Below are positions 3,001 through 6,798 of a stretch of 6,798 nt of DNA, one piece after another. Made by a program: the position numbers. The stretch lies in IMG/VR virus record IMGVR_UViG_2695420649_000009. One strand, written 5' to 3'. The stretch comes from a virus (Duplodnaviria > Heunggongvirae > Uroviricota > Caudoviricetes). The first letter of the stretch is position 1; each line of letters starts with the position of its first letter.

Positions 3001-6000
3001 CACACCGACTGAGTGCATATTCTGTCAGCAATTCTGTTGCCCGCTCTCTGTCATTCATACTAATGCCCATTTTCCCAAGGAACGCAGAAACCCCCATCTC
3101 AGCCCGATTCTGTGTCATGCCCTGCGCGGCCATCACATCAGTGATACTCAGCGCATCTTTCGACGTTGAGGCCGATGCATCAGTCAGGCCGGGGGATTTT
3201 GGGGAGTAGTATTTCGGTAAATCTTCCAGTTTCATTTTTTGACCTGCCCTTCAAGCATTATGGGATAAATCTTCACCCCCAGACGTCCACCAGATACTGG
3301 CTGAGCACGAACGATATTGATTTCATCAAACTGCTCATCGTCCATTAGCAACCCCGCATGCGTCAGCGCATCCAGCGGCGCTTTCAGAATATTGTCCAGG
3401 TCACGGCGGCGCTTATCCGGTGGTTCTGCAATAATTTTTATTGCCAACCTTCCGGACAGGCTTAATTTCAGCCGCTGCTGGCGAACAATAAGCGCCACTG
3501 CCCGGCGATAACGCTCCCCGGCTTTTGATACAAAATATGTGCTGCCACGACGACGCCAGTAAGTGTTCACCGTCGGCGGGTAAGGTAAAACAAATTCTAT
3601 GCGCTCGGTCATTTATGCTTTCCACTTCAGAACACCCGAATTTCTCGCGTGCATTAAAAAACGAATCAGCAACAACAGCTGACTGCCGTGTTTCTCTTCA
3701 AAATCTTTTACTCCGGCATGTAGTTCGTTACGGCATTTACGGCATAACGGAATAACAAACAAATCATCAGCCTTTGTTCCCATCCCTCCCAGTCCATGAC
3801 CAATGATGTGATGCGGATCATCTGCCTGATTGCCACACGTCATGCATTTCTGCGTTTTTACCCAGCGCGTGTATACAGGCATCTCTTCCCGTTGTGATTT
3901 CTGGCGCTGGAGATACTGAGCCGGTGACTCCGGATCAACGGCAATGCTGACCACCGTCTTTTCCTGTGGTGGGTTCTGTTGCTGGTGGACGTGAGGCAGT
4001 AACGCAATATTTTTTGTGCGCTGCTTCAGTATGCTGGTGGCTGTCTGCTCTCCCGGTATGATGTCGCTTTCACTGTACACAGAGCGAATTTTTTCCGCAC
4101 GCAACCCCAGCGAACGACGTAATACCGCTTCCGGTAGCGCGTCCGCCACCTGATTGCGGACCGCCCACCAGGATAATTCAGCCAGAGATAATTCACGCTC
4201 CTGCGTACCGCTTATTGCGTGACCGATGACGTCAATCATCCATGCTGACAGGTTTTGATGAGCAAGTTGCTCGAGTGATTCGGATGTCTGGTCACGCAGC
4301 TGGTTGTCGCAGTGCCAGCACAACACCATTGCGCCGGTACCATAACGGTGAATGACGGTTTCGCTGTGATGATAATCGCCGTGTGGCCACTGGCAGGATT
4401 TAATATGGCGCAACAGCCAGTCAGACAATGCACCAGCACCACCAGCAGCACGAATCACCCGTGCGTTACTGAAAAACGGCAGCAATGTTTTGTCTTCCAC
4501 CAGCGGCTGGCGAGCGGCAGGAACGACCCCGGACGGCAGATTACGCATGCTTTTTGGTTCCGGCTCCACCAGTATTCTGCCGTTATGGAATGCTGACATT
4601 GATTCACGGCCTGGCTTAACGATAACCAGACCGAGTTCCGGTACCAGAACAGGTCGAAGTAATACCCGCACATTACCTCCAGATCCGTTGCTGGAATGTG
4701 CGGGACGGACGCGTTGGCCGTTCGGAGTAAGGGAGCCTGACGGAGATTATCCAGTGACGGTAGTCGAGGCTAAGGGCTTTTTTAACCTCGCATCCGCGCC
4801 TGCGGTAACACTGAATGAGCCATTCGGCCTGTTCTTCAGTGCATGGGGGATGCTGGTACCAATCAGATTTAAATGCGTGAGAGCGCCGCCCGTGCCTGCT
4901 GGCAAAGACGGCTGAATTATCAGAATTGTGTAGTCTGGAAGGCAGTGGCTGACAATAGCGCCATTCTCAACGCGCACAGTATAGAGGCCATCTTCACTAA
5001 AAATTTCACGTAATTCTTCGATTTTCATCAACAGAATCCTTCCAGATAAATAGCACTCCCCTGTTCGGGGTCCATCCCTCTTCTCCCTGCGCGCTACTTA
5101 AGTATTTTTGATTCTATTCCGGCACCATCTAAAACTTCAAACGCGTTGAAAATAAAAACAAAAACCCGCCGAAGCGGGTTAAGTGTGGGTGCATTGAGGA
5201 TGCCTGACCCATCAGAGGTGGCGAGGGATTTCTCCCCCGCCTGGTCTCTTACTCCTCAGGTTCGTAAGCTGTGAAGACAGCGACCTCCGTCTGGCCGGTT
5301 CGAATTCGTACCTCGCAGAGGTCTTTCCTCGTTACCAGTGCCGTCACAATGACGGTTAAACAGATGACGATCAGGGCGATTAACATCGCCTTTTGCTGCT
5401 TCATAGCCTGCTTCTCCTTGCCTTTCGGCACGTAAGAGGCTAACCTAGATTTGCCGTTCATAGATTGAGCCTCAGATTAATGTTAAGCGTCTTGCCGGAC
5501 GCGTAATGTTAACTGGGGCTTTTCTCTATCTGCCTTTTGGTGTTCATGCCTGAGACAGATAGCCTCAAGCACCCGCTGCAATTCTACTTAACTCTCCTTT
5601 TCCCGCAAACCGTTTTTATCCCCAGCGGCAAATCGAATACACCACCAGCGCCACCGCCATCGCAATTCCTACCGTTGTTAATGCTTCAGGCCAGGTCATC
5701 GTAAAATATCCTCCACGCTTATCAGTCCGTTCCGCTCCAGATAACTCATCGCCTTATCCGGTAATTTGCAGTCTGGCTTCGCTTTCCTCAGTTGCCAGGT
5801 TAACTGCTTTACCAGCATGGTTAACTCATCGACCAGACGCTGATATCCCACTGGTTTGTATTCATGCAATTTACCGGCTGGCTCTGCTGCCAGCGATACC
5901 AGTGCGATTTCCAGAACAGCAATATCCATCTTATATGTGCGGATGATGTCATGGTCGATTGTGCCCGGTATGCACAGTCTCTGTGCTTCAATAGTCTCCT

Positions 6001-6798
6001 CTGCGTGAGCTATTAACTGCTCTCTGGTAAAAGTCGTCATGCCGTAGCCCCTTCTTGATATTTTTCAAACCAGAACACAACCGGCTCTGCTTCCAGCGAT
6101 GCCAGCGCAATCCGTGCCAGTTCCATTTGTTCACCACGGGTAAGCCCGTTTTCAAGCGGGTTTTTAATGAACAATTCAATACGTTCTTTGGTAATAGTGG
6201 TCATGTGTTACTCCTTAACCCGCAGTGCTTTCAACTGATGAGGGGAACAAAATCTTTTCATCAAACCCTGCATTCATATCATGAACAGCAACACACCAAT
6301 CCATCGACGAACGATTATCAAGAGCCTCCATGATTTCATCCATGCGGCGTAGGTCATACAGGTAAATGCTTTTATCGCCAATGGTGTAAAAGCCAATTTT
6401 TTTCGGTGATGGATGAGGTGTACTGGCAATAGCGGACACTACCATTTGTTCTTTTTTTAAGCAGCCATCTGATGATATTTTTCCCTGAAGGCTGCCGGGG
6501 AGATATTCCCCAGACGAGAGTGACGACGCTGACGATTGTAGAAAATCTCAATGTATTCCCGTATTACTGAGATGGCTTCATCCCGGTTATTAAAACGATA
6601 GTGGCTCAGGCTCTCATTTTTCAGCGTTCCCCAGAAGCTTTCCATCGGAGCGTTGTCGTAACAGTTACCTTTACGCGACATTGATGTTTTCAGACCAGAC
6701 TGCTCCTGTATGACCCGGTAATCGTATGCGCAGTACTGTGAACCTCGATCAGAGTGGTGGATTAGCCCGGCAGGTGGGCGCTGGCTCCTGAGCGCCAT

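Follow-up and report, generated by a model that had tools for sequence, protein, structure and literature searches.

We analyzed a 6,798-nt segment of a lambdoid Escherichia coli prophage (IMG/VR record IMGVR_UViG_2695420649_000009; the whole stretch is called the window below), concentrating on three consecutive small open reading frames (ORFs) on its minus strand. We refer to these as ORF55, ORF114, and ORF27, according to their lengths in codons. An initial annotation of this DNA had described all three, and reading of the strand together with the ORF list confirmed their coordinates, both junctions, and the Shine-Dalgarno (SD) sites:

6037-6204, minus: ORF55, with its ATG at 6204-6202 and an SD-like AAGGAG at 6216-6211
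5696-6040, minus: ORF114, with its ATG (6040-6038) overlapping the ORF55 stop TGA (6039-6037) and a weaker SD, GAAGGGG, at 6054-6048
5616-5699, minus: ORF27, with its ATG (5699-5697) overlapping the ORF114 stop TGA (5698-5696)
5709-5714, minus: the ORF27 SD, GGAGGA, inside the last ORF114 codons

The junctions, at 6040-6037 and 5699-5696, both read ATGA. In RefSeq, ORF55 (WP_000207997.1) and ORF114 (WP_000206826.1) are entered as hypothetical proteins, and ORF27 is left unannotated. The initial annotation recognized no family for any of the three proteins. Pfam and NCBIfam scans gave nothing above threshold, with only ORF27 producing sub-threshold matches (DUF883_C, E=0.029; KdpF, E=0.12), and PADLOC at E<=1 returned no match for the trio or for two flanking small ORFs. 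The initial annotation proposed that the trio is an operon of its own, consisting of two paralogues and a membrane peptide, and may be a toxin-antitoxin (TA), abortive-infection (Abi), or superinfection-exclusion (Sie) module. We instead think it likely that these are three independently recombining cassettes at the distal end of a long early operon, in an ordinary lambdoid accessory mosaic, and that ORF27 is a real gene for a membrane microprotein.

Mosaic structure of the trio

We used a 636-nt stretch holding the trio as a blastn query against 5,426 complete E. coli genomes. Some part of the stretch was present in 3,235 genomes. At least 80% of it was present in 322, compared to 1,634 genomes for ORF27 alone, which argues against conservation of the three genes together. 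The partial matches fell in discrete blocks:

query 1-132: the N-terminal module (N-module) of ORF55, matching the 5′ ends of EaA, DUF551, DUF550, or dATP/dGTP pyrophosphohydrolase genes
query 88-140: a short island around the sequence encoding IALASLEAEP
query 116-596: present behind an HNH endonuclease gene
query 381-630: the C-terminal part of ORF114 plus ORF27
query 511/512-595/596: exactly ORF27, alone

This analysis demonstrates that the trio is mosaic. The three genes are not inherited as a multi-gene unit, as ORF55 is swapped for an HNH gene and ORF27 occurs behind many different upstream genes. The 589-bp stretch from ORF55 to ORF27 would represent the far end of a tightly packed lambdoid early operon, with each cassette recombining on its own.

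ORF27 as a conserved gene

ORF27 specifies a peptide with the architecture MxWPEAF–transmembrane (TM) helix–YSICRWG. As described in the initial annotation, it is a single-helix hydrophobic peptide, with a 19-residue hydrophobic core of mean Kyte-Doolittle value 2.16. We assessed coding by scanning IMG/VR with a pattern that fixed only codons 1-7, to avoid circularity. Of 126 pattern matches, 117 continue as a hydrophobic, family-like ORF of 22-34 codons, and 106 of these have exactly 27. As a control for chance, the same pattern was run against bacterial genomes of all phyla. Nine of the 118 hits among the matches listed (7.6%) passed a loose filter, and none was family-like. Given this chance pass rate, we do not claim as family members approximately ten divergent IMG/VR ORFs of 23-34 aa that carry MxWPEAF followed by a hydrophobic tail.

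We examined substitutions in codons 8-27 using 52 unique DNA sequences, which encode 33 peptides. Entropy at codon positions 1, 2, and 3 was 0.48, 0.27, and 0.84, and the ratio of nonsynonymous to synonymous polymorphism (pN/pS) was 0.40, compared to 0.73 and 1.93 in two shifted frames. The initial annotation had staked its reading on conserved frames with coding-type substitutions, and ORF27 has both. The near-invariant residues outside the codon 1-7 motif (G11, A13, A15, A17, Y21, C24, R25, and W26) are consistent with a helix-packing face and a basic cytoplasmic end.

The initiation region is also conserved. In 95 of the 117 homologues, the ORF27 start and the stop of an upstream ORF (40 aa or longer) overlap as ATGA, and the overlap is 1 nt in another 15. 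GGAG, GAGG, or AGGA is found at positions -20 to -4 in 113 of 117, whatever the upstream gene; this strong SD core constrains the upstream proteins to end in ...QEVNQ, ...VEDILR, and similar sequences directly before their stops. Judged by its sequence, ORF27 is a conserved, protein-coding gene, with its start site fused to the stop codon of a variable upstream early gene.

Other searches were negative. RNA folding of the ORF27 region gave no stable structure (z=+1.38). Eight ORF27 variants produced only inconsistent weak matches in PHROGs, indicating that the family is not in PHROGs v4, and a full-text literature search for the peptide and motif strings found no occurrence. The 27-mers were placed in clusters represented by DUF551 proteins; as those proteins, on inspection, lack the peptide, we rejected a Rosetta-stone fusion.

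ORF27 is abundant in E. coli. There are 3,110 copies in the 1,634 positive genomes (~30% of the total), with up to seven per genome and 163 on plasmids. Using tblastn, we found it in 91 phage records. Blastn matches bounded exactly by ORF27 occur in 933W, VT2-Sakai, Stx1_14040, a P1-like plasmid, and Av-05, a virulent phage of the Vequintavirinae; in these five the upstream gene varies, and its stop always overlaps the ORF27 start. A further copy is in the virulent phage TH18. None of ten inspected homologue records, including 933W and VT2-Sakai, annotates ORF27. Submitters have occasionally annotated the exact peptide, as "hypothetical," "bacteriophage," or "prophage protein," and RefSeq has called it once with an N-terminal extension.

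The genes upstream of ORF27 mostly encode proteins with an EaA-type N-module (described below) and DUF551-type or ORF114-type ends, with exceptions. Downstream, 56 of 109 viral loci have a same-strand hok gene no more than 800 nt away; in the others, early genes follow within a few bases. In 933W and VT2-Sakai, ORF27 is located between orf75/L0139 and sokW-mokW-hokW. We found no copy in the K-12 cryptic prophage CPS-53 (yfdS-yfdT), where the N-module is present in YfdT, and none in Salmonella phages with Eaa genes.

Two observations concern individual records. In a phage labelled Actinobacillus pleuropneumoniae vB_Apl-pPE4 (PP818812.1; our H72, 12978-13230), the C-terminal part of ORF114 and ORF27 are present at 92.9% nucleotide identity to the E. 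coli sequence of the window. This host was unexpected, and mislabelling, contamination, or recent transfer may explain the match. Separately, orf75 of VT2-Sakai (our locus L003, 1034-1504) and L0139 of 933W (L128, 434-904) are annotated with a GTG start that yields the N-terminus ...VTLDAATRTAAGGELM..., which is an out-of-frame translation of a DUF551 3′-end remnant (...LPEPPQEV..). The true start of orf75/L0139 is probably the ATG that occupies the position of the ORF27 start in other loci. It seems that the DUF551 3′ end, including its GGAGGTGA SD, serves generally as a joint for coupling to any gene that follows.

EaA-type modules and the IALASLEAEP joint

ORF55 and ORF114 both start with an EaA/YfdT-type N-module, defined here as ~42-54 aa with MTTxT(K/R)E...(I/V)AL(A/V)SL(E/A)AEP beginning at residue 1. 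The two proteins match each other (BLASTP E=1e-5, 33% identity over 54 residues), with the similarity ending at IALxSLxAEP, and both match PHROGs 660, 60, 3323, and 5117, ORF114 matching phrog_660 at E=8e-43. The homology that led the initial annotation to call them paralogues is therefore real within the N-module, but ORF55 is a chimera, and the two need not be functional paralogues. The parts of the two proteins are as follows:

6082-6204, minus: ORF55 residues 1-41, EaA/YfdT-type N-module ending in IALASLEAEP, defined by phmmer clusters and DNA similarity
6071-6123, minus: 53-nt homology island (ELARIALASLEAEPVVF when translated) that marks a module boundary and a recombination breakpoint
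6037-6081, minus: ORF55 residues 42-55 and stop, corresponding to the 3′ end of an HNH endonuclease gene and including the ORF114 SD and ATGA joint
5879-6040, minus: ORF114 N-module (residues 1-54), an antiparallel helical hairpin predicted by AlphaFold2 (AF2)
5699-5827, minus: ORF114 C-terminal module (C-module; residues 72-114, ELTMLVKQL..), defined by an alignment of 34 homologues

We searched ORF55 with phmmer against 1.84 billion representatives and counted matches as clusters at 50% identity. Its N-module is at the extreme N terminus of 243 clusters (164 at E<=1e-10) of 53-457 aa, at 71-98% identity, and every match stops at query residue 40-54. In DNA, the module and the 5′ ends of EaA, DUF551, and DUF550 genes share ~90% identity. 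The other end of ORF55 has a different source. Both E. coli W12-1 and phage ArgO145 carry, in place of ORF55, a gene for a 121-aa HNH endonuclease (WP_001229296.1), behind which come an identical ORF114 and ORF27, in that order. At the DNA level, the final 14 codons of the endonuclease gene are identical to the end of ORF55, with identity beginning immediately after the CCG codon (P41) of AEP. ORF55 is thus best read, from these alignments, as a recombination by-product in which a constant N-module is joined directly after IALASLEAEP to the tail of an HNH gene. The tail would have been kept because it bears the ribosome-binding site and ATGA joint for ORF114. The frame of ORF55, which the initial annotation expected to be conserved, does not define a 55-aa family, although the exact sequence is on at least 1,000 contigs and carries the UniRef name "Eaa protein."

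The 53-nt island occurs at 3,975 places in 2,277 of the 5,426 E. coli genomes, with similarity usually ending at AEP(V) (query position 37-49). A pseudogene in the sister prophage L002 (5493-5619) is truncated right after the IALASLEAEP motif, and protein P0031 is a natural recombinant in which the ORF55 N-module is joined at the motif to the C-terminal part of ORF114. The sequence encoding IALASLEAEP looks like a preferred recombination joint for the shuffling of early-gene modules, and such shuffling explains "stub" genes such as ORF55. We also noted that fusions, truncations, and pseudogenes break exactly after the ~45-nt island that encodes the motif (6071-6123 in the window).

ORF114 has 238 homologues, all from Escherichia, Shigella, or Salmonella and all named hypothetical, "prophage protein," or "Eaa." Alignment of 34 of them revealed three parts, with an insert of 0-130 residues separating a variable N-module, which ends in IALASLEAEP, from a nearly invariant C-module. 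The N-module is swapped in the natural recombinants P0031, P0064, and P0066. The C-module matches the C termini of phrog_660, 924, 8171, and 30109 and is also found without ORF27. In the AF2 model (mean pLDDT 78, the predictor's confidence score), two helices (residues 6-26 and 30-51; pLDDT ~90) precede a linker, predicted with low confidence, that comes after AEP and leads into three more helices. Neither Foldseek against PDB and BFVD nor a PDB profile search gave a match at E<=0.001 (best Foldseek E=0.04), and what matched was limited to generic helical hairpins and designed coiled coils. ORF114 would be a soluble helical protein, with the N-module hairpin probably serving as a handle for oligomerization or partner binding.

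In some genomes, ORF114 and ORF27 are fused. P0011 (143 aa) and P0029 (114 aa) are natural fusions, created by a frameshift or by deletion between GATGAGTTA repeats, that produce a membrane-anchored N-terminal part of ORF114. They are present in several assemblies, including complete genomes, and are probably accidents.

The closest described relatives are P22 EaA ("Eaa") and K-12 YfdT from CPS-53, which have the same extreme N-terminal module (MTTxTKE...IALxSLEAEP). YfdT matches ORF114 at E=8e-6 and ORF55 at E=1e-3 (BLASTP), and for EaA the likeness extends to DNA, as the ~90% identity noted above is to EaA-annotated genes of Salmonella and E. coli phages. All of these genes belong to the early region and are non-essential. 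EaA and YfdT differ completely from the window proteins in their C-terminal parts, where ORF55 has the HNH-gene tail alone. The sole functional hint for a relative is that multicopy yfdQ-yfdR together with either yfdS or yfdT inhibits replication initiation (PMC4776307), and this may not transfer. The N-constant, C-variable organization of ORF55 and ORF114 also resembles that of lambda/Stx Ea22, mosaic early proteins with a short conserved N terminus, helical or coiled-coil regions, and swappable C-terminal domains, among them DUF551 in variant V2 (PMC10834534), and the two groups are neighbors in the same gene arrays. By profile, however, ORF55 and ORF114 are not members: neither matches the Pfam Ead_Ea22 or NCBIfam ead/Ea22 models at E<=1. 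Neither has a Pfam match to DUF551 (PF04448), and DUF551 proteins enter only as partners often encoded upstream of ORF27 at other loci.

Operon setting and neighbors

Upstream and downstream of the trio, we identified the following features:

6412-6798: insertion sequence (IS) element of the IS3 family, with a transposase C terminus (rve, rve_2, and rve_3 domains at 6457-6798, minus)
6215-6445, minus: preceding operon gene of the phrog_1714 family (E=5e-37), 5′-truncated by the IS
5399-5574, minus: hok mRNA leader/sok region, outside the trio (Rfam RF01794, 112 bits)
5249-5404, minus: hokD-type toxin gene (Pfam HOK_GEF, E=3e-23; RefSeq hokD)

The minus-strand order is thus IS3-family transposase, truncated phrog_1714 gene, ORF55, ORF114, ORF27, hok/sok, and a 94-aa ORF, beyond which lie DUF968, rusA, the Q antiterminator, a 65-aa ORF, a DNA methylase, and three tRNAs. 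An intact phrog_1714 gene (264 nt, 88 aa) stops 10 nt before ORF55 in the intact prophage copies L001 and L002. Homology between the window and intact prophages starts near 6412, and the IS3-family element interrupts the phrog_1714 gene in its 5′ part. In E. coli 042 and PRO_A-1490, which have intact copies, the region is preceded by cI/cro-like genes, replication genes, and a run of DUF and ead/Ea22-like genes. The region is the nin-equivalent part of the early rightward operon, located in intact relatives between the replication genes and DUF968-rusA-Q. This placement favors expression with the lytic early genes over expression in the lysogen.

We found nothing that sets the trio apart as the separate three-cistron operon of the initial annotation. 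Since ORF55 begins 10 nt behind the preceding gene, and a promoter and terminator scan detected no promoter-like or terminator-like site delimiting the trio, the three genes are a stretch of a longer operon. The ATGA overlaps are indeed built for translational coupling, as had been proposed, but they are nothing special here. In an intact copy of the region, 4-nt overlaps are present at five of ~26 annotated same-strand junctions, and ~10 junctions overlap in some way. As such overlaps are frequent in the early operon, ATGA joints are the local norm and not a sign of a separate three-gene operon.

The hok toxin neighbor noted in the initial annotation is well supported, with hokD and its sok/hok leader directly downstream of ORF27. 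A mok-like in-frame extension of hokD reaches 5461, and a terminator-like site is at 5163-5180; in 933W, sokW, mokW, and hokW are annotated at the same position after the ORF27 copy. A candidate hok promoter, TTGCGG-16-TAGAAT (5608-5581), was not supported by the promoter scan. In sister prophages (L129, 1109-1620; L130, 2105-2667), a convergent RelE/ParE-ParD type II TA pair replaces hok/sok after ORF27. This exchange suggests that the position is a hotspot for insertion of TA "morons."

Additional features are further downstream in the window. The 94-aa minus-strand ORF (4747-5031) matches a phage family only in its first 30 residues (phrog_340, E=1e-7), the remainder being unmatched, and may be a truncated or frameshifted remnant. 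A run of 42 Ns at 2375-2416 interrupts the Q-antiterminator ORF (2309-3235, minus) toward its 3′ end, making the C terminus of the listed 308-aa Q translation, with its X residues, unreliable. Downstream of the DNA methylase is a cluster of three minus-strand tRNAs (496-745), arranged as is typical in the late regions of Stx phages: Arg-tct, Arg-tcg, and a CAT-anticodon tRNA that ARAGORN calls Met and RefSeq, in L002, calls tRNA-Ile. There is also an Rfam match to the small RNA STnc100 (124 bits) at 230-419.

Possible roles of the ORF27 peptide

ORF27 most likely specifies an inner-membrane microprotein that is made with the early genes. In this proposal, the 27-residue bitopic peptide would be synthesized by coupled translation during infection or induction rather than in the lysogen. 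The positive-inside rule predicts an N-out, C-in topology. Coupled translation is implied by the strong SD in the last codons of the upstream gene and by the start welded to its stop, and would tie ORF27 output to the early operon. The peptide would act during phage development through helix-helix contacts involving the eight near-invariant residues, on a host membrane protein or on membrane integrity, rather than as a defense expressed by the lysogen.

This proposal places ORF27 among small membrane proteins of less than 50 aa, such as KdpF, AcrZ, and MgtS, and phage "moron" peptides, which it resembles in its size, single TM helix, small-residue face, and frequent lack of annotation. Its matches to such proteins are sub-threshold only (the KdpF and DUF883_C hits and the inconsistent PHROGs). 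Phage morons differ in that ORF27 has neither its own promoter nor its own terminator. Hok/Gef proteins (hokD; hokW of 933W) are likewise small single-helix membrane peptides of the same accessory region, and ORF27 is directly upstream of hok/sok in the window, in 933W, and in VT2-Sakai. Unlike them, it has no sequence similarity to Hok/Gef, HOK_GEF match, mok-like leader, antisense RNA, or detected promoter of its own; its translation appears to depend on the upstream gene, and approximately half of its loci lack hok.

Several points weigh against the proposal as a whole. Constraint is only moderate, as judged by the pN/pS of 0.40, and the 52 unique DNA sequences share phylogenetic history. 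The peptide string was not found in the supplements of the Sakai Ribo-seq study or of "The Cryptic Bacterial Microproteome," nor in full text, an absence that is uninformative. We infer the membrane role, topology, and partner from sequence. In the window itself, the IS3-family element ~210 nt upstream of ORF55 may have disconnected the trio from the phage early promoter. Finally, ORF55 could still work as a free N-module, as N-module-only proteins of 53-74 aa recur among the phmmer clusters.

Of the alternatives, the one that fares best is that ORF27 is a small membrane toxin or depolarizer, similar in size to the type I toxins TisB, DinQ, and ShoB, or a holin-like peptide. Made early, it would aid host shutdown or tune lysis timing, possibly with the adjacent hok. 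The 27-residue length, the single TM helix with the conserved small-residue face G11/A13/A15/A17, and the presence of hok within 800 nt at 56 of 109 viral loci, 933W and VT2-Sakai included, fit this idea. However, the features of a type I TA locus are absent from ORF27 itself: HOK_GEF and sok matches are confined to the hokD locus, and ORF27 has no promoter-like site or antisense RNA. At the half of loci without hok, other early genes come directly after ORF27, up to seven copies coexist in one genome with no obvious antidote, and Pfam, NCBIfam, PADLOC, and PHROGs revealed no similarity to known toxin families. We regard a toxin as unlikely.

It is more doubtful still that ORF27 is a detachable anchor by which the co-translated EaA/DUF551-type protein is brought to the inner membrane, the two forming a functional pair. 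The upstream gene nearly always specifies an EaA-N-module protein with a DUF551-type or ORF114-type C terminus, coupling would link their stoichiometry, and the P0011 and P0029 fusions exist in complete genomes. Yet VT2-Sakai and 933W pair ORF27 with the unrelated orf75/L0139, the ORF114 C-module can be present where ORF27 is missing, the Salmonella Eaa phages yielded no ORF27, and the fusions look accidental, for example arising by deletion between GATGAGTTA repeats.

The suggestion that the trio is a dedicated TA, Abi, or Sie module, with the membrane peptide as effector and two soluble paralogues as regulators, is very improbable on our data. Small hydrophobic peptides are frequently toxic when overproduced, this one is tightly coupled to upstream genes, and TA loci are nearby (hok/sok here, RelE/ParD in sister prophages). 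Against a module, PADLOC matched none of the three proteins, the trio is present in 322 genomes compared to 1,634 for ORF27 alone, and sister prophages have the HNH endonuclease gene in place of the chimeric ORF55. Unrelated genes are coupled to ORF27, which is also found in virulent phages, no promoter-like site or antisense-RNA signal was detected, and the position in an early lytic operon speaks against expression in the lysogen.

Least probable of all, and hardly credible, is that ORF27 is untranslated and its conserved 84 nt are a DNA or RNA element (a hok promoter or leader, recombination joint, or mRNA stabilizer) with an incidental frame: although ORF27 is ~40 nt upstream of the hok leader, moves en bloc with hok in O157 phages (query 512-636 at 90-98%), and is uncalled by RefSeq, its variation is biased to third positions with pN/pS below both shifted frames, 106 of 117 homologues keep 27 codons, similarity runs from ATG to stop in loci without hok, there is no stable RNA fold, and 113 of 117 have a strong SD.

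We return to ORF27 as an early-made membrane microprotein carried by a shuffled operon. ORF27 is rarely annotated and has no Pfam, NCBIfam, or PHROG family, yet it is conserved, under purifying selection, and very common in prophages of pathogenic E. coli, often directly upstream of hok/sok. It is a cheap and well-defined target for microprotein studies and annotation curation. The IALASLEAEP boundary is a concrete, countable example of the reassembly of lambdoid early genes at a short conserved joint, and ORF55 and ORF114 are a caution that adjacent look-alike small ORFs need not be functional paralogue pairs. More tentatively, ORF27 may represent an uncurated family of phage membrane microproteins, with the 41-residue EaA N-module and the IALASLEAEP island being a dedicated shuffling joint; we hold this combined idea to be possible rather than probable. 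If it is true, ORF27 could have a specific role in host takeover or membrane targeting, at a fixed ratio to a variable early protein, and the N-module would be a constant "handle" on hundreds of C-terminal effector domains, a polymorphic early-protein system analogous to polymorphic toxins.

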